A stretch of DNA of 13,171 nt. Origin: an uncultured archaeon (GTDB lineage Archaea; Asgardarchaeota; Jordiarchaeia; Jordiarchaeales; Jordiarchaeaceae). A program made the translations under genes and the position numbers. Shown piece by piece: positions 660 through 12,576 of the stretch. The notes under the pieces were generated by a model, which saw nothing but the letters and a program-made list of their open reading frames with translations, ran no database searches and had not been told where the DNA came from. Position 1 is the stretch's first letter; each line of letters begins with the position of its first letter. Where the stretch lies: assembly GCA_964510585.1 (NCBI GenBank), contig CAZECW010000144.1:1-13171 (forward strand), given 5' to 3'.

Positions 660-667
660 TATTTAAA
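660..667. promoter_or_regulatory. Candidate shared TATA box of the divergent 630(-)/716(+) genes
   Basis: Reads TATTTAAA on + and TTTAAATA on -; about 30 nt from the ATG at 630 and about 50 nt from the ATG at 716. Confidence 0.4.
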
Positions 668-715
668 CGCAACACTTAGATTTTTAACCTAATGTTCACC
701 GGAAGGTTGTTGTAA

Positions 716-2344
716 ATGAAGCTGGATGAGCGTATAGAAATTTATGGGAAAATGTCTTTGGCGCTTGAATATATTGAGTCTTGCAAAGAATTCGCCAGTC
801 TCATTCCTGAGGTGAGAACAAATCTGGTTTATGCGAGGACAGATCCTAAAACCCCAGAAGATGTCTTAGCTGTTGAGGGACGCATAACTGTGATAAACGG
901 TATGCCTCACGCTGCGGGGAAGCTAAAGTTTGGAGCGTCAAGCCACATGGCAAGGCTAATCATAGAAATAAACAGGAATGACCCCTCAATAAGAGCTGGC
1001 ATAAACTTTGCCTGCAACCCCGAGCTAATAAAGTGGCTTGAAAGGTACTGTGAGAAGAAGGGTTGGGTGTTTAGTGTAATCGACCGCTCCAAGGAGCCCG
1101 AGGAAGTCAAACAGGTAGAGGGTGCATCTATGCCTTGGAAGGTGAAGGAAACCATTCGGGCGGCAGGAGGGAGGGTGCCTAAGGTTTTCTACGAGGCGGG
1201 GGCTGTAGGCAAAGAAGACCTCACAGTGCTGGTGGGGAAGGATCCAATAGAAGTTGCAATGGATACCTGTGAATTAGCGAAGGAATACGCCAAGAGTCTT
1301 AGGCCTCCACCTAAAGTGGGCAAAATTGACTTGGAAACGTTTACCAATTATTTACTGCAACGCCTTGGGAAAAGGGATGAAACAGTTCTTGTGCCCCCCT
1401 TAACGGGTGTTGATGCCGCGGTAATTGATATAGGTAATAATAAAGTTCTCGTTGTGGCTGAGGATCCAATATTTTCTATTCCGAAGCAGCCGTTAGAGAT
1501 GTTTGGATGGTACACTGTTCACATTGGGGCGAGTGATATTGCCGTTATGGGAGTTAAACCCCGCTACATGACCTATTCGCTTTTGATGCCTCCAGAAACT
1601 AGGGACGAGGAGTTTAGAACCATTGTGGATTCCATTCATCAGACTGCCGTGGAGCTCGACATTGCCATAGTTGGAGGACATACCGGCTACTATCCCGGAT
1701 TTGCTTCGCCCACCATCGGGGGAATAGCAGTTTTTGCCATTGCAGACAAATACAGTTATGTTACAACGGCAGGCGCAAAGCCCGGTGATGACGTTATACT
1801 GACTAAGGGGCCTGCTATAGAGACAGTGGGAATACTGTCTGTTCTGCGTGAGCCAGAATTACTGGAGAAATATCCTAGGTCACTTGTGGAAAAGGCGAAG
1901 GCTCTGTGCAAAGAGATGACCGTGGTTAAGGACGCATTAACCGCAATGGAGGTGGGCGGCGTCACCGCAATGCATGATGCAACAGAAGGAGGAGTGATAG
2001 GGGGACTATTTGAGATAGCGAATGCTAGCAATGTGGGCATGGAGATTGATGAGTCCTCATTCATTTATCCAGAAGAGGTGAAAATGGTGTGTGAGGCATT
2101 CAACATTGACCCAGTTGCAGCAATCGCTGAAGGTTCCCTGCTCATCACCGCCAAACCGACGCACTCCCGACAAATAATCAAAAGACTTGGGGAAGTGAGG
2201 ATAAAGGCGTCCATTATTGGAAAAGTTACAAGCGACACAAAAACAAGAACAATGAAAAGAATCGACGGAAGGAAAGTACCATTAGAAATCCCGAGACAAG
2301 ACCCCTTCTGGCCAGTATTCTTCGAAGGCGTAGAAAAAGGGTAA
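716..2344 (+). CDS. thiN: ThiN-type thiamine-phosphate synthase domain (aa ~1-190) fused to an AIR-synthase-related PurM/HypE/ThiL-fold domain (aa ~200-542)
   Basis: ThiN motifs IPEVRTN, EGRI, FGASSHMAR, DRSKEP, EGASMPW, GAVGKE. After the linker RPPPK: GKI..., GVDAAVID, VVAEDP, ASDIAVMG, IVGGHT, AKPGD, MHDATEGG, typical of the uncharacterised PurM-like subfamily. Confidence 0.88.
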   Translation: MKLDERIEIYGKMSLALEYIESCKEFASLIPEVRTNLVYARTDPKTPEDVLAVEGRITVINGMPHAAGKLKFGASSHMARLIIEINRNDPSIRAGINFACNPELIKWLERYCEKKGWVFSVIDRSKEPEEVKQVEGASMPWKVKETIRAAGGRVPKVFYEAGAVGKEDLTVLVGKDPIEVAMDTCELAKEYAKSLRPPPKVGKIDLETFTNYLLQRLGKRDETVLVPPLTGVDAAVIDIGNNKVLVVAEDPIFSIPKQPLEMFGWYTVHIGASDIAVMGVKPRYMTYSLLMPPETRDEEFRTIVDSIHQTAVELDIAIVGGHTGYYPGFASPTIGGIAVFAIADKYSYVTTAGAKPGDDVILTKGPAIETVGILSVLREPELLEKYPRSLVEKAKALCKEMTVVKDALTAMEVGGVTAMHDATEGGVIGGLFEIANASNVGMEIDESSFIYPEEVKMVCEAFNIDPVAAIAEGSLLITAKPTHSRQIIKRLGEVRIKASIIGKVTSDTKTRTMKRIDGRKVPLEIPRQDPFWPVFFEGVEKG

Positions 2345-3231: not shown

Positions 3232-3759
3232 TTGCCTGTTAAAGAAGTATTGCTTCTTGGAAATCCGAAACTATATGAAGTATCGGAGGAAGTTAGAGAG
3301 GAAGAATTGGAAGAGCTTAAACCTGTTATAGAGGATTTGCATGACACTCTGATGGATTTCAGAAAAAGATATGGTGCTGGGAGAGCAATAGCCGCTCCAC
3401 AGATAGGGGTCATGAAAAGACTCATTTACATGCACATCTCGGAACCAGTGGTTTTCATTAATCCTCGACTTGAATTTGAAAGCAGTGATATGATGGAGAT
3501 TTGGGACGACTGCATGTGCTTTCCAGATTTGCTTGTAAAGGTGAAACGCTACCGCAGATGCAGAATCCAATATAGGGACATAAATTGGGAGGAAAAAAGC
3601 ATGGAACTGGAGGGCGGCCTTTCAGAGCTACTGCAACATGAATACGACCACCTTGAAGGCATTCTTGCCGTATCCAGAGCCATAGATGGAAGGTCATTCT
3701 GCCTAACCAGCCAAAGAAGATTTATAACACAGGTAGCAATTCAAAACCCTAAAAAATAG
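3232..3759 (+). CDS. def: Peptide deformylase family protein with atypical motifs 1 and 2
   Basis: LLLGNPKL, GRAIAAPQIG (motif 1), INP, DDCMCFP (motif 2 variant of EGCLS), QHEYDHLEG (HExxH). TTG start with GGTGAGG RBS. Confidence 0.9.
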   Translation: MPVKEVLLLGNPKLYEVSEEVREEELEELKPVIEDLHDTLMDFRKRYGAGRAIAAPQIGVMKRLIYMHISEPVVFINPRLEFESSDMMEIWDDCMCFPDLLVKVKRYRRCRIQYRDINWEEKSMELEGGLSELLQHEYDHLEGILAVSRAIDGRSFCLTSQRRFITQVAIQNPKK

Positions 3760-3801: not shown

Positions 3802-4592
3802 TTGGACGAACCAGTAAAGCTCAAAAAAGAAGGTGAAATAGCCGTACTACTGTTAAACCGCCCAGAAAAGTTTAATGCATTTGACCTAGATTTGATTGAG
3901 CAATTCGCGAACCATTTAATATCTCTAGCAGTAGACAATGAAGTGCGAGCCGTAGTCATATCCGGTGAAGGTAAAGCCTTCTGTGCCGGCGGTGATTTGA
4001 AGTGGATGCTGGAATATCCACAAGGACCACATGCAGCCATTCACCAACTAGCCGCCCGATTTCACCAAGCAGTTTCAGAGATTCGTCGGATGAACAAGCC
4101 GGTCATAGCAGCAGTTAATGGAATAGCAGCCGGCGGTGGATTCTCCCTAGCCTTAGCTTGCGACTTTCGGGTTATGGCTCGATCCGCCATCCTGAGACAA
4201 GCATATACTTCGTCTGGTCTAACCCTTAACGGCGGGGTTACGTTCACCCTTCCTAGACTTGTGGTTTAGCCCGAGCCCTAGAAATTGTGGCGTTTGACAA
4301 GCCCATTTCATCCGAACAAGCCTTGGCATGGGGACTGGCAACAAAAGTGGTGGATGACGGTCAGACCTTGGAGGAAGCCATAAAAATGGCAAACCAGTTA
4401 TCAAGCATCTCCCTTAACGCTTTTGGATTATCAAAGAAGCTCCTCACAGACTCTTTTGACACATCATTCGAAACCCAACTAGAGCGAGAACGAGAAGGAA
4501 TAAGAGAATGCGCAGCACATCCCGAAGGAAAGGAGGGAATAAAAGCCTTCACCGAGAAGCGTAAACCAAAATTTAGAGGCGAACATAGATAG
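3802..4592 (+). pseudogene. Enoyl-CoA hydratase/isomerase (crotonase, PaaG-like), split by a 1-nt deletion at ~4263 (pseudogene or assembly error)
   Basis: ORF 3802-4269 has AFCAGGDL and AAVNGIAAGGGFSLALACD. Adding one G at GTGG^TTTAGCC gives LPRLVGLARALEIVAFDKPISSEQALAWGL, continuous with ORF 4287-4592 (EGKEGIKAFTEKRKPKF); 263 aa in total. Confidence 0.85.
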
Positions 4593-7064: not shown

Positions 7065-7325
7065 TCAATATTCTAAAAATTAATACAGTTTATTCCCCAA
7101 GTATCCTTCAATGGTGAAAATTGGAAATGTGATTGGTTTTCTTGATTACTTCACCATTCTCAGAAATTTTTATGCGTTTGCCCAAGGTTACATTTTTCCA
7201 CGAATTCATCCAACCTTTTTGGCACTAGAATTTCTTAATCGAAAAGATTTTTGATTCTGAAATCAACTTTATTGTCATCAAATTTAAAACAGGATAGTCT
7301 AAGGAAAACTAGGAGTTGCAATTTT

Positions 7326-8194
7326 ATGAATAGGAATATTTTGAGGATTGTGGCACATGGAGACTGGGATGGGGTGGTGGGAGCGGGGCTTCTCTCACGC
7401 GTTTATGCCGTGCCTCTGGAGTTTCCTTTCGAATTAGCGGGTTTAAATATTGAGAATGCAGCCTGTATTGAAATTACTCCTGGCCGTGTAAGCAGTATAC
7501 GGAACTCAGTCATAATCGACCACCATGCAACTGAGGAGCATAAATATACAGATGAACAGGGAAATGTATGGATTCTAAAGCCGGAGTACCGGGCGGTTTC
7601 CTCCCTAATAGCAGACCAATGGTCACTAGAATTTCCAAGTGAGTGGAGAGTCGCAATAGAGGAGGTGGACACAGCAAATCTCAACTCACCACTGAGCAAA
7701 ACATTATGGAGAGCCTATCGTGTGGACGCTAAAGGTTTTCCCCGCCAAAAAGTTGCAGAAATGGTCAGGAAAGGAGAATGGGAACAACTCGGCAAATTGG
7801 CCCACGAGAAACAAGAGGAGTACCGGAAAGTGGAGGAAAAACTAAAGAGCTCCTCGACAAAAGCGCTACACTAACTTCGGAGTCGGTCTATTTCACTTTC
7901 AAGTTCAATGACCGCTGGGAGAGGGGAGCCTCCAAGGACGCCATGCTCCTACTGGAAGAAAAAAATCCCATAGTGGTCGCCATAGCGGTTGAAGAAAAGG
8001 GCATCAAGGGTGGAACCATAGCCACAAGGAGAAACATTGACCTTGCCAAAGCCTACGAACACCTGAGAAAAAAAGGTTACACTTCCTGCGGCCACAGAAA
8101 CGTTGGAGGCTTCCAAGCCTTAAAGCCAAAAACCTTGGAGCAGGCCCTAAGGGATTTGAAAAGTGCTCTAGAAAATCTAAAAGAAGAAACTTAG
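7326..8194 (+). pseudogene. DHH/DHHA1 family phosphoesterase (NrnA/RecJ-like), split by a 1-nt deletion in the A5 run at 7837-7841
   Basis: AHGDWDG (DxD), IIDHH, and C-terminal CGHRNVGG (GGH-like). One extra A joins KVEEK to TKELLDKS, giving 289 aa. The ATG at 7326 has an upstream AGGAG, so it is preferred over the track's 7251 start. Confidence 0.82.
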
Positions 8195-9464: not shown

Positions 9465-9502
9465 ACCGCCCACCTTCCAATAACAGTGGAGCCACACCAG
9501 AA

Positions 9503-9723
9503 TTATTCAAGCACGCTACAAATTACAATGCTCGAAACTCTGGAGTCCACACAGCCCACAAGGGGAGGCAACATTAGAAATTTTACATGTTCATTGCGCC
9601 ACCTTCACTCTGTGTAGTTGCTCTTAAAGCATTACAAACCCATTACCACCAAAGGAGAATAGCAAACAAAGTACACCAACACACTCACAATCCTTGAGCA
9701 ATCACCTGCCTGAAAGCTTCCAT
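9503..9723 (-). pseudogene. Possible decayed remnant of a second MgtE-like gene
   Basis: Fragments in shifting frames: MEAFRQVIAQGL*, VLCLLFSFGGNGF (compare LLALLFNLGGIVAGF in the downstream MgtE), and FLMLPPLVG. Similarity judged by eye only. Confidence 0.25.
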
Positions 9724-10337
9724 ACCCTTACTTAGGAATATCTTCGAAAAGTTGACGCAAAACCAAAATATAAGGTTAACCCCGTTTCGACACTGCCCCC
9801 TCTAAGCATTACCTATTGCCGGGTGGCGCTGTTTCACGTCTTCTCCCTGCCCTTTGCACCTTAAATTTGTATTTCCCCCATAAAATTCGATTTCAAAACT
9901 TTCTAAACAAATGAGTATCTATCCTACCACCAATAAGTGACACTGAATTAACAACGCTACCTATTCTGGCAATACTGAGGACGGTATACTTCTAAACTTT
10001 TGGTGCTAATGATTTTTTACTTTTAGGGCACTAAGAGGGGTACCAGTTCTCAAATTAATAATTCCACGCTTCTCTGGAGCTTTTTGAAAAAACACCAAAC
10101 AGTAAATACCAAAATTCCTTTTGCACTACGTCATCATCTTTACATTAATCTAATAGATGGTTGGCTGATTTTCTTAATGACAATTTTTATATGTACTTTT
10201 TCATTTTGTATAGCGTAATACAGTTCGTTTATTAATCAATTTTTAAATAATTCTTGCACTAATGGTTTATTTTGTGGAGGGCATAGTTATTGGCTTTATC
10301 TAGTTGTTTGTGCTCATGACGCTTTTGGGGTGATGTT

Positions 10338-11732
10338 TTGGTTGAAGAGTTTGATGTTATAGTGGTTGGTTCTGGTTCGGGAATGATTGTGGCTTCGAAT
10401 GCTGTTGAGAGCGGTTTGAGAGTGGCTTTGGTTGAGAAGGGACCTCCCTTAGGTGGAACCTGCCTCAATTGGGGTTGCATTCCTTCAAAGATGCTCATCT
10501 ACCCTGCTGATGTTGTAACAATGATTAGGGAAGCGGAAAAAATTGGCATCAAGGCCAAAATAGAGAAAATCGATTTTCAAAAGATTATGCACCGAATGCG
10601 TCATCTCATCAGCGAGGAGAATCAAGGAATGGCTTTAGGTGTGGAGCGGGATCCAAATATTAAGTGGTTTAAAAACATAGGTGAATTCGTCTCTGATTAT
10701 ACTATAAAGGTGGGAGACCAAAAGATTAGGGGCGAAAAAATCTTCATAGTTTCTGGTGCTAGACCTTTTATTCCTCCAATTAAGGGGATTGATGGTGTAA
10801 ACTATTTAACCAATGAGACCGTGCTAGAATTAGAGGAGCTACCTCAAAGCATTATCATCATTGGTGGAGGGTACGTGGGCTGTGAGTATGGCCACTTCTT
10901 TGCGGGAATGGGTAGTGAGGTTACAATAGTGGAGTTGGGTCCCAGACTTGTGCCAGGAGAGGAGCCTGAAATATCAGAGCTACTCCAAAAGGAGATGGGA
11001 AAAAGAATGAAAATACTCACGAACCACCAGGTGGTTGAAGTTATGGAGAAAAATAAGATAAAGAAGGTGGTGGCCAAAGAAACTACTAGTGGGAAGGTTA
11101 AAGAGCTGTCGGCTGAGGCCTTAATGGTCGCTGTGGGTCGCAAACCCAACTCTGACCTACTTAAGCCTGAGAAAACTGGTGTAGAGGTAGATAGTAAGGG
11201 ATTCATAAAGGTGAACGATTATCTGGAAACCACCAAGAAGAACATTTGGGCTTTTGGAGACGCCATCAATAAACAGATGTTTAGACACGCAGCCAATTAC
11301 GAGGCACAGGTGGCATGGCACAACGCCTTCAGCGACCACAAGGTGCCAATAAACCTCTCTGCAACACCCCACGCGGTTTTCACACATCCCCAAATAGCAT
11401 CGGTTGGCTTAACCGAGGAACAGGCAAAAAAGGAAGGCCGAAAAATTTTGGTAGGTTACTACCACTTTAAGGACACCGCCAAAGGCTCCGCAATGGGAAA
11501 CCCGGAGGGATTCGTGAAGGTCATAGTAGAACAAAATACGGGGAAAATTCTGGGCGGACACATAATTGGCCCCTTCGCACCTGAACTAATACAGGAGATT
11601 GTAAACGCTATGGCCTATGGAAATGGTTCCTACGCCCCCATCATTAGGGCTATGCACATTCACCCCGCAGCCACAGAAACAGTTAAGTGGGCCTTTGGAA
11701 ACCTGAGACCAGTAGGCGGTGATTCCATTTAG
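10338..11732 (+). CDS. Class I pyridine nucleotide-disulfide oxidoreductase (dihydrolipoamide dehydrogenase / mycothione reductase-like)
   Basis: GSGSG FAD loop, GGTCLNWGCIPSK redox-active disulfide, GGGYVGCE nucleotide loop followed by VELG (acidic residue, NAD-type), WAFGD, C-terminal HIHPAATE. TTG start with GGGGTGA RBS. Confidence 0.92.
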   Translation: MVEEFDVIVVGSGSGMIVASNAVESGLRVALVEKGPPLGGTCLNWGCIPSKMLIYPADVVTMIREAEKIGIKAKIEKIDFQKIMHRMRHLISEENQGMALGVERDPNIKWFKNIGEFVSDYTIKVGDQKIRGEKIFIVSGARPFIPPIKGIDGVNYLTNETVLELEELPQSIIIIGGGYVGCEYGHFFAGMGSEVTIVELGPRLVPGEEPEISELLQKEMGKRMKILTNHQVVEVMEKNKIKKVVAKETTSGKVKELSAEALMVAVGRKPNSDLLKPEKTGVEVDSKGFIKVNDYLETTKKNIWAFGDAINKQMFRHAANYEAQVAWHNAFSDHKVPINLSATPHAVFTHPQIASVGLTEEQAKKEGRKILVGYYHFKDTAKGSAMGNPEGFVKVIVEQNTGKILGGHIIGPFAPELIQEIVNAMAYGNGSYAPIIRAMHIHPAATETVKWAFGNLRPVGGDSI

Positions 11733-11740
11733 GAAGTGAT

Positions 11741-12031
11741 GTGGAAATGGACGTGGTAAAAGTTCCAGGTAGCAATAGGAAGCATAAGGTTCGCATGTAC
11801 GCTTTGAGCACCTGTATCTGGTGTAAGCGGACAAAACAGTTTCTGAAGGATAACAACATAGAATACGAATACGTGGATGTGGACCTGGCCAATAGAGAGG
11901 ACTATGAACAAATCAGGCAGGAGATTTTGGACAGGGGAGGAAACCTCTCCTTCCCAGTTATAATAATAGATGATGAAAAGTTAATTAATGGTTTTCGTGA
12001 AAGCGATTTGAGGGAGGCTTTGGAAATTTGA
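11741..12031 (+). CDS. Glutaredoxin/NrdH-like protein, methanoredoxin-like (CIWC)
   Basis: YALSTCIWCKRTKQFL, SFPVIII, INGF; starts 8 nt after the upstream stop; true start may be the ATG at 11747. Confidence 0.9.
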   Translation: MEMDVVKVPGSNRKHKVRMYALSTCIWCKRTKQFLKDNNIEYEYVDVDLANREDYEQIRQEILDRGGNLSFPVIIIDDEKLINGFRESDLREALEI

Positions 12032-12576
12032 CCACTCTGGAAGAAGTCCGAAAAAGAGCGGAGAGCGACGCAAAAACTTACGGCTACTACCTAAACCCAG
12101 ACCCAGAATTTCTCAAAGGACTCATAGAGGGACTTAAGAAGAACTGGGACCGCTATGGTTACCCCTCCTGCCCCTGCAGGTTGGCTTCAGGAAATCTTGA
12201 AATCGACCGCGACATAATTTGTCCCTGTGACTACCGAGACCCTGACGTGGCAGAGTATGGACAGTGTTACTGCTCCCTATACGTCAGTAAAGAGGTGTAC
12301 GAGGGTAAGGCTCCTCTAAGGTCAATTCCAGAACGCAGACCCAAAGAAAAGCAAATCAGATCCTTCGAAGCCGCAAGAACCCTCAAAAAGGAAAAAGTTG
12401 AAGAGGAGACAAAATTGGAAGCCGAAAAACCCATCACAATTAAGAAGAAGTTATGGTACTGTAAGCAGTGTGGCTACGTAGTCTACAGGGAGGATCCACC
12501 ATACATTTGTCCCATATGTAAAGCGAAGAGGGAAATGTTCTCGGAAATAAGCATAACCATCTCCGAGAAGGGATAA
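12028..12576 (+). CDS. Ferredoxin:thioredoxin reductase catalytic-chain-like protein with C-terminal rubredoxin-like domain (ferredoxin:disulfide reductase, FDR-type)
   Basis: YGYPSCPCR, ICPCDY, QCYCSLYV (CPC/CPC/CYC), then WYCKQCGY...CPICKA. The TTG start overlaps the glutaredoxin TGA (TTGA). Confidence 0.92.
   Translation: MTTLEEVRKRAESDAKTYGYYLNPDPEFLKGLIEGLKKNWDRYGYPSCPCRLASGNLEIDRDIICPCDYRDPDVAEYGQCYCSLYVSKEVYEGKAPLRSIPERRPKEKQIRSFEAARTLKKEKVEEETKLEAEKPITIKKKLWYCKQCGYVVYREDPPYICPICKAKREMFSEISITISEKG

Follow-up and report, generated by a model that had tools for sequence, protein, structure and literature searches.

The 13,171-nucleotide stretch analyzed here (contig CAZECW010000144.1 of assembly GCA_964510585.1, an uncultured archaeon of the Jordiarchaeia; hereafter the window) carries at positions 716 to 2344 of its plus strand a gene for a 542-amino-acid protein (P0001), in which a ThiN domain of the catalytic type is joined to an ATP-binding domain of the PurM fold. 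The fusion itself, thiamine diphosphate (TPP) riboswitches in front of homologues and the membership of such homologues in thi operons place this orphan PurM-like subfamily in thiamine metabolism, and as judged from the sequences we regard the link as strong. Rather than ThiL, the PurM-like enzyme is probably a thiamine-precursor kinase of a new kind. With some hesitation, and by analogy with ThiM, we favor a kinase of the thiazole branch, which would supply thiazole phosphate to the thiamine monophosphate (TMP) synthase; another thiamine-precursor kinase appears rather unlikely, a TMP kinase more so, and what is left we assign to a non-kinase or other function.

The gene is one open reading frame (ORF) with an ATG start and without internal stops. 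Pfam and a frame check agree that it encodes a complete ThiN domain, a proline-rich linker and a complete AIRS-type domain, as had been proposed from the letters alone (in the following, the original prediction). ThiN occupies residues 13-182 (positions 752 to 1261), and the match to PF10120 covers profile positions 2-161 of 165 and scores 173.8 bits against a cut-off of 25. The motifs IPEVRTN, EGRIT with Arg56, GASSH (residues 73-77) with His77, EGASMPW (135-141) and GKE are kept. The linker RPPPK (residues 196-200, 1301 to 1315), whose length and sequence differ between homologues, joins the two halves; in the AlphaFold2 (AF2) model it separates helices 177-195 and 206-216. The PurM-like half starts with the motif VGKID (1316 to 1330), in which G202 and K203 are invariant and whose Gly-Lys resembles that of the SelD N-terminal loop. 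It continues with the AIRS domain (residues 232-338, 1409 to 1729; PF00586, 64 bits), which carries GVDAAV, AEDPIF, GASDIA and GGHT (320-323) with D250, D274 and H322 invariant in the family alignments, and with the AIRS_C domain (residues 355-510, 1778 to 2245; PF02769, 80.7 bits), which contains MHDATEGG. Residues M419 to G426, and thus HDATEGG (420-426), are invariant across 22 members of the PurM-like family including the clade with 45-50% identity, and the acidic motifs that bind ATP and metal in the superfamily are invariant in the family alignments as well. A conserved DPFWPVFF tail (2300 to 2326; D529, F531, W532 and F536 invariant) precedes the C-terminus, which reads ...EGVEKG. RPPPK, GASSH, EGASMPW, GGHT and HDATEGG all lie where the original prediction had placed them. 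The AF2 model of the fusion protein, built on 56 homologues, has a mean predicted local distance difference test (pLDDT) score of 91.8 and a predicted template modelling (pTM) score of 0.71; with AIRS and AIRS_C above cut-off and a two-domain PurM fold, the protein shows both marks of the PurM superfamily.

When related loci were searched with Rfam, six bacterial ones, which represent three phyla, proved to have the TPP riboswitch RF00059 immediately in front of the PurM-like gene, namely L107, L109 and L111 (Chloroflexota), L097 and L102 (Spirochaetales) and L139 (Bacillota). In both Spirochaetales loci, whose PurM-like proteins are 57-58% identical to the domain of the fusion, the riboswitch is followed by the PurM-like gene, thiE (with a 4-nt overlap), thiD and tenA, and in L109 by the PurM-like gene and thiE. 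The classical salvage set consists of tenA-thiM-thiD-thiE, as for example in the S. aureus operon (PMC2766623), and by this analogy the PurM-like gene holds the place of thiM in the thiE-thiD-tenA riboswitch operons. The PurM-like gene therefore goes together with either TMP synthase, ThiN or ThiE, depending on which one the locus offers. These riboswitch-controlled unfused homologues in thiE/thiD/tenA operons bear out the proposal that the fusion ties the orphan subfamily to thiamine in the manner of a Rosetta stone. Downstream of the module in L111 comes a cobalamin nucleotide-loop operon of its own, whose genes were set aside as uninformative context. In an Aminicenantes contig, a molybdenum-cofactor riboswitch (L057:2998-3116) precedes the PurM-like gene at a distance of about 7 kb. 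An Rfam search of the whole window gave no family match, and accordingly no riboswitch upstream of the fusion gene; this absence is the expectation for an archaeon. The A/T-rich stretch from 660 to 715 (plus strand), which by sequence reading contains the boxes TTTAAA and TTTTTAA some 30-50 nt ahead of the start codon, is a possible archaeal promoter.

Relatives are encoded in at least 590 stretches of GTDB species-representative genomes, a protein search scored 1,641 clusters with E <= 0.001, and the closest loci, with 96% identity, are found in metagenome-assembled genomes (MAGs) of Candidatus Jordarchaeia. Full-length proteins with ThiN, AIRS and AIRS_C form more than 90 clusters (at 90% identity), which are 53-97% identical to P0001 and originate from Jord-/Freyarchaeia, Methanomassiliicoccales, WOR-3, Aminicenantaceae and others. 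We inspected 85 related loci frame by frame for the arrangement of the two parts. Twelve of them encode a fusion (Jord-/Freyarchaeia, Methanomassiliicoccales, Archaeoglobus, Thermoplasmatota, WOR-3, Aminicenantaceae), while in 33 a ThiN gene is directly followed by a PurM-like gene of the same strand, in most cases with an overlap of 1-56 nt; such split pairs occur in Methanothrix/Methanocrinis, Methanoregula, Methanospirillum, Altiarchaeales and others. Separate genes in reverse order were present in four loci and in one more that is cut by a contig end (Chloroflexota, WOR-3 and Nitrososphaeria; 45-50% identity), and a PurM-like gene without ThiN in 30 (Aminicenantes, Eubacteriales, Spirochaetales, Planctomycetota). 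A search for larger fusions yielded a single further architecture, a true fusion in reversed order from Bacillota (AIRS-AIRS_C-ThiN-isochorismatase). This triple fusion of 757 amino acids is located in a Bacillota MAG (L139:375-2838) behind its TPP riboswitch, and its amidase-family domain may stand for an additional reaction of salvage or hydrolysis. The presence of both gene orders, of fusion and of fission across two domains of life indicates that ThiN and the PurM-like protein are a functional couple. The fusion is not an assembly artefact, and with more than 90 clusters and 12 fused loci it is not limited to one assembly either. In the literature we found no description of a ThiN-PurM-like architecture or of the PurM-like family, in agreement with the original prediction, which knew of none; in public databases, however, such proteins are common under generic names like 'thiamine-phosphate synthase family', 'AIR synthase family' or 'HypE', and look-alikes in the ESM Atlas likewise bear generic AIRS/HypE names only.

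According to sequence comparison and structural model, the PurM-like half is a separate, uncharacterised branch of the PurM/ThiL/HypE/SelD superfamily, since identities to ThiL, HypE and SelD are low and scores stay below the cut-offs. The best-scoring NCBIfam model on the C-terminal half is that of ThiL (TIGR01379) with 103.2 bits against a cut-off of 184.15, which supports the earlier view that the domain is not canonical ThiL; the HypE model (TIGR02124) reaches 99 bits against 251.6 and the SelD model (TIGR00476), whose match begins at residue 200, 92.7 bits against 125. Foldseek matched the AF2 model to HypE, SelD, ThiL and PurM at E-values of 1e-16 to 1e-23, and template modelling (TM) scores of the C-terminal half are 0.80-0.86 for HypE, about 0.75 for ThiL (0.70-0.77 target-normalised) and about 0.72 for SelD, at 18-25% identity. 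Both the sequence (E 2e-15) and the fold thus make HypE the nearest solved relative, and in neither respect is ThiL any nearer to the domain than HypE or SelD are. By the membership marks of ThiL, HypE, SelD, ThiM and ThiR the fusion protein falls outside each of these families. The closest solved structures are those of HypE (PDB 2z1e, 3wjp), a carbamoyl dehydratase of hydrogenase maturation, and many family members are labelled HypE by JGI, but the C-terminal Cys (PRxC) that carries the HypE substrate is absent from the fusion protein, whereas a true HypE with the C-terminus PRVC is encoded on contig C60 of the host genome. A SelD-type Cys/Sec beside the N-terminal Lys is also absent, the motif reading VGK, and a search of the protein with PF02110, the HK domain of ThiM, gave no match. 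ThiL (PDB 3c9t, 5cc8) has in common with the PurM-like half the superfamily, the fold, the expected dependence on ATP and the place in thiamine metabolism, but the two are only 18-20% identical. Two other genes of the superfamily were noticed in the host genome. A second orphan PurM-like protein (G000:C126:7997-9019, minus strand), 36% identical to the fused domain and with the motifs HDPTEGG and GGHTE, is encoded next to an Amidohydro_2 gene and a double winged-helix-turn-helix regulator and stands outside the thiamine-linked family. A SelD-like gene (G000:C193:53401-54411, plus strand) contains one in-frame TAA in its conserved N-terminal domain, and the same stop is found in the sister genome G001.

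The original prediction had considered that one chain makes TMP and then TPP, with the PurM-like half as TMP kinase, in effect a ThiL isozyme. ThiL is the only thiamine enzyme with the PurM fold, its model is the best-scoring one, and the DATEGG motif can be taken to resemble D-x-S-D-G of ThiL; furthermore, fusions of consecutive steps are common, and a riboswitch next to thiE would fit a product-consuming enzyme equally well. However, the score is far under the ThiL cut-off, HypE is the nearest solved relative, and a TMP kinase would be redundant almost everywhere. The host assembly (3.78 Mb, 96% complete) encodes a canonical ThiL (G000:C140:31021-32196, 241.7 bits), and in addition ThiC and Thi4 on contig C137 and a canonical ThiDN on C146, whereas ThiE, ThiM and thiamine pyrophosphokinase (TPK) were sought there and not found. 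Among the three genes whose absence the original prediction had considered, only thiE is missing, canonical ThiL and ThiDN being present. No canonical thiamine step of the host needs the fusion, and the conversion of TMP to TPP is already covered. Our phyletic counts comprise 35-36 genomes that carry the PurM-like gene (carriers), mostly MAGs of unknown completeness from related lineages which are not phylogenetically independent. A canonical ThiL above cut-off is present in 31 of the 35 carriers other than the host, and two more have a fragmentary ThiL. On account of this co-occurrence we rejected a replacement of ThiL, and we consider a TMP kinase unlikely.

The ThiN half looks catalytic. 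In comparison with PDB 2pb9, the ThiN domain of P. furiosus ThiDN, it gave a sequence E-value of 3e-29, a TM score of 0.94 and a root mean square deviation of 1.4 Å (AF2 model). In an alignment with ThiDN, ThiR-like and stand-alone sequences, the ThiNs of the module retain all ThiDN motifs, and R56 and H77, separated by 21 residues, are both invariant in 56 fused homologues. An Arg (GRI) and a His (GASxH) with equal spacing are reportedly essential in ThiN of P. calidifontis. As all ThiDN-type motifs are kept and Arg56 and His77 are invariant, we read the half as a catalytically competent ThiN-type thiamine-phosphate synthase. The alternative would be a non-catalytic sensor of thiamine or TMP, as in ThiR, which allosterically controls a PurM-like enzyme active elsewhere, for example in Fe-S or sulfur metabolism. 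ThiN is said to serve as ligand sensor in ThiR, whose non-catalytic domain reportedly lacks the full-length helix/Met region, and the sulfur-gene neighborhoods described below would fit. Nevertheless, the segment DRSxEP...EGASMPW is intact in the fusion, whereas ThiR-like sequences have deletions around EGxSMPW and a degenerate solo ThiN of Methanoregulaceae has lost both Arg and His; moreover, the PurM-like gene alone is under riboswitch control, in operons with thiE, thiD and tenA. A sensor is for these reasons most improbable, and the retention of all motifs that are lost in ThiR-like and Arg/His-less ThiNs also speaks against the earlier suggestion of an enzyme allosterically controlled by TMP. 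ThiR, a repressor composed of a helix-turn-helix (HTH) and a non-catalytic ThiN, resembles the fusion in that ThiN is joined to a partner other than ThiD, but a Pfam search of the fusion protein for HTH families found none, ThiN beginning at residue 13, and its ThiN keeps the segment that is shortened in ThiR-like sequences. A ThiR-type gene was sought in the host genome and not found, the ThiN matches there being two only. The Arg/His-less paralogue of Methanoregulaceae (L119:5620-6225, also in L120 and L124) is flanked by the DNA primase large subunit/PCNA genes on one side and by dapA-dapB on the other, and its sequence suggests that it is probably non-catalytic.

In a quick maximum-likelihood tree with supports from the Shimodaira-Hasegawa-like approximate likelihood ratio test (SH-aLRT), the partner ThiNs group together in a single clade (SH-aLRT 100) apart from ThiDN, ThiR-like and degenerate ThiNs. 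Inside this clade fall the ThiNs of three Methanoregulaceae genomes that have Thi4 downstream instead of a PurM-like gene, and this pairing of a single clade with either partner points to the thiazole branch. In the mechanism that we propose, the ThiN half would condense hydroxymethylpyrimidine diphosphate (HMP-PP) and thiazole phosphate to TMP and diphosphate, while the PurM-like half would use ATP to produce one of the phosphorylated substrates of the synthase. We infer that it most likely phosphorylates THZ, the thiazole alcohol, or a closely related thiazole precursor (the carboxylate, for instance), which would yield thiazole phosphate. Among the conceivable roles this one is the least redundant and the best placed, as thiD is already in the operon, ThiM is scarce and ThiL is common: ThiM is absent from 29 of the 36 carriers, host included, and where present it always stands beside ThiE, and neither ThiM nor ThiL was found within 10 kb of 86 family loci. 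The PurM-like half would then be a non-homologous stand-in for ThiM, and its coupling to ThiN would parallel ThiM-ThiE, yeast THI6 and ThiD-ThiN. The same pairing of kinase and synthase is realized in ThiM-ThiE and THI6, and homologues of the PurM-like half fill the slot of ThiM, but the half is unrelated to ThiM in sequence or fold and the synthase is ThiN, not ThiE; we therefore only suppose that the protein may work like ThiM, and do not say that it is ThiM. ThiDN of archaea and Thermotoga, a kinase of hydroxymethylpyrimidine (HMP) and its phosphate (HMP-P) with ThiN, contains the same ThiN domain and motifs and also joins an ATP-using partner to the TMP synthase; in the fusion, however, this partner has the PurM fold instead of the ribokinase fold of ThiD, ThiN comes first, and it belongs to a separate ThiN clade. 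For the Jordarchaeial host, in which a de novo route with ThiC, Thi4, ThiDN and ThiL is already there, the fusion would represent a module for thiazole salvage and condensation that passes its TMP to the separate ThiL.

The distribution of Thi4 and ThiG is in line with a need in the thiazole branch to a certain extent. Thi4 is absent in 20 of the 28 archaeal carriers and present in all five typical non-carrier Methanomicrobiales, and ThiG is absent in the four carriers tested (4/4). One of these four, G005, with a genome of a single 2.1-Mb contig, has ThiC, ThiDN and ThiL and is devoid of Thi4, ThiG, ThiM and ThiE. Several points have to be set against a thiazole kinase. The Thi4 contrast is not significant once all tested non-carriers are pooled (p = 0.11), and the lack of phylogenetic independence mentioned above applies to all such counts. 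Seven carriers also have ThiM-ThiE and the host has Thi4, so that the function would be partly redundant there. In 15 Aminicenantes and Eubacteriales loci, an Rfam search gave no riboswitch near the PurM-like homologue, the molybdenum-cofactor riboswitch elsewhere in L057 being the only match. A plain kinase does not account for the sulfur genes that recur as neighbors in several phyla. Finally, we know of no member of the PurM superfamily (ThiL, SelD, PurM, PurL, HypE) that phosphorylates an alcohol; the known precedents act on phosphate, selenide or an amide oxygen.

Phosphate-to-diphosphate chemistry as in ThiL would be retained if the PurM-like half were an HMP-P (or HMP) kinase, that is an analogue of ThiD, and the fusion a second, non-homologous ThiDN that mirrors the ThiD-ThiN arrangement. 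ThiD or ThiDN is indeed absent from 10 of the 35 carriers, and in a sample of 121 Methanomicrobiales ThiD is missing in 7/11 carriers as compared with 11/110 non-carriers (Fisher p = 1e-4). On the other hand, the remaining 25 carriers, the host among them, have ThiD or ThiDN, and since thiD belongs to the same riboswitch operon in both Spirochaetales loci, the activity would be redundant there. In addition, eleven ThiD-less Methanomicrobiales with ThiC-like genes have no member of the PurM-like family, the enrichment seems peculiar to a single lineage, and the 'ThiC' matches of methanogens may include paralogues for benzimidazole synthesis. On the strength of the Spirochaetales operon and the eleven genomes we rejected a replacement of ThiD as a general role, and consider this kinase quite unlikely. 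ThiC-like genes, often in two to three copies, without ThiD were observed in 18 of the 121 sampled Methanomicrobiales (e.g., the Methanoregulaceae-like G008, G015, G021, G052 and G108); many of these genomes are also without Thi4, and all three that were tested for ThiG are without it. Either these genomes use their 'ThiC' copies to make benzimidazole, or the lineage has an HMP-P kinase and a thiazole synthase that await discovery.

A salvage kinase could also act on the intact vitamin, for example as thiamine kinase converting thiamine to TMP, with ThiL taking over the product. TPK is absent from all 36 carriers while ThiL is nearly always there, and the carrier MAG G029 contains the PurM-like gene and ThiL without ThiC, ThiD, ThiE and ThiN. 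Yet G029 is a single MAG, the riboswitch operons that we examined contained no thiamine transporter, and the tight coupling to a TMP synthase, be it ThiN or ThiE, suits a supplier of its substrate better, so that we give this possibility as little weight as the HMP-P kinase.

The genomic neighborhood of the family is rich in genes of sulfur and Fe-S metabolism. Clustering of 1,308 neighbor ORFs together with Pfam-annotated contigs revealed a cysteine desulfurase in 17 loci, an NAD-synthase-like PP-loop ATPase in 16, Rrf2 regulators in 14 and FdhD in 12, and further recurring neighbors are a Cys/Met pyridoxal phosphate enzyme, NadA, SAT-like/FeS_assembly_P, TtuA-like, ThiF, MoaE and NifU. In a WOR-3 locus the gene order is PALP, fusion, Rrf2, Cys_Met_Meta_PP, a small ORF, NifS and NifU, and in another one Rrf2 overlaps the beginning of the PurM-like gene. 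To a large part the context is synteny that Halobacteriota have in common, but it occurs in bacteria as well, and it may reflect regulation or a sulfur-linked thiazole chemistry instead of a plain kinase. In the latter case, the PurM-like half would activate an amide or carbonyl oxygen in the way of PurM or HypE, and sulfur from cysteine desulfurase would be used to form or repair the thiazole ring; we regard this as unlikely, and the same holds for the extension that anaerobes possess with it a third, ATP-dependent thiazole route that replaces Thi4/ThiG. Such chemistry would agree with HypE as closest solved relative, with the missing Thi4 and ThiG in most carriers tested, with the alternation of Thi4 and the PurM-like gene behind one ThiN clade, and with the recurrence of cysteine desulfurase, NifU, Rrf2, FdhD, PP-loop ATPases, ThiF, cysteine-synthase-like PALP and SAT-like neighbors in archaea and bacteria, including surroundings of the iscR-nifS-nifU type; NadA next to the module and the isochorismatase (amidase-family) domain fused in one lineage could be counted here too. 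Against it, none of the neighbors is universal, the sulfur context is largely the Halobacteriota synteny, the Spirochaete and Chloroflexota operons consist of salvage and condensation genes only, eight non-carrier genomes are likewise without Thi4, and the reaction has no chemical precedent.

Thiamine salvage is far less mapped than synthesis, and gaps in the thiazole branch are found in many anaerobes, including the cultured Methanothrix/Methanocrinis, Methanoregula and Methanospirillum, which have no ThiM and often no Thi4 or ThiG. If the assignment to a thiazole-branch kinase is true, it would add a new fold to the activation of thiamine precursors, correct a widespread mis-annotation as HypE and sharpen predictions of which members of sediment and digester communities are auxotrophic for vitamin B1. 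The recurrence of cysteine desulfurase and Rrf2 genes beside the family could mean that the chemistry is more unusual than that of a kinase.

Downstream of the fusion gene, the window contains a clear peptide deformylase of this Asgard archaeon at 3232-3759 (plus strand, 131 bits), which is found beside the fusion gene in sister MAGs too (L030). It is followed on the same strand by an enoyl-CoA hydratase split over two frames (3802-4269 and 4287-4592; ECH_1 positions 3-144 and 157-250). As a Freyarchaeum relative (L022) has one intact enoyl-CoA hydratase of 261 amino acids at the same place after the fusion gene, the split is a frameshift or an assembly error. A DHHA1-like gene is apparently split as well into overlapping ORFs in different frames (7251-7874 and 7778-8194, plus strand), and the 96%-identical Jordarchaeia contig (L030) contains there a single DHHA1-like gene for 289 amino acids. 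Between the genes for MgtE and a pyridine-nucleotide disulfide oxidoreductase lies a stretch of 840 nt (9498-10337) without any ORF of at least 60 amino acids, save a minus-strand ORF (10259-10498) that extends into the final 80 nt; the first half of the stretch is rich in C (GC skew -0.26), and the stretch has no Rfam match. At 12028-12576 (plus strand), a ferredoxin-thioredoxin reductase catalytic-chain domain is fused to a rubredoxin-like domain.

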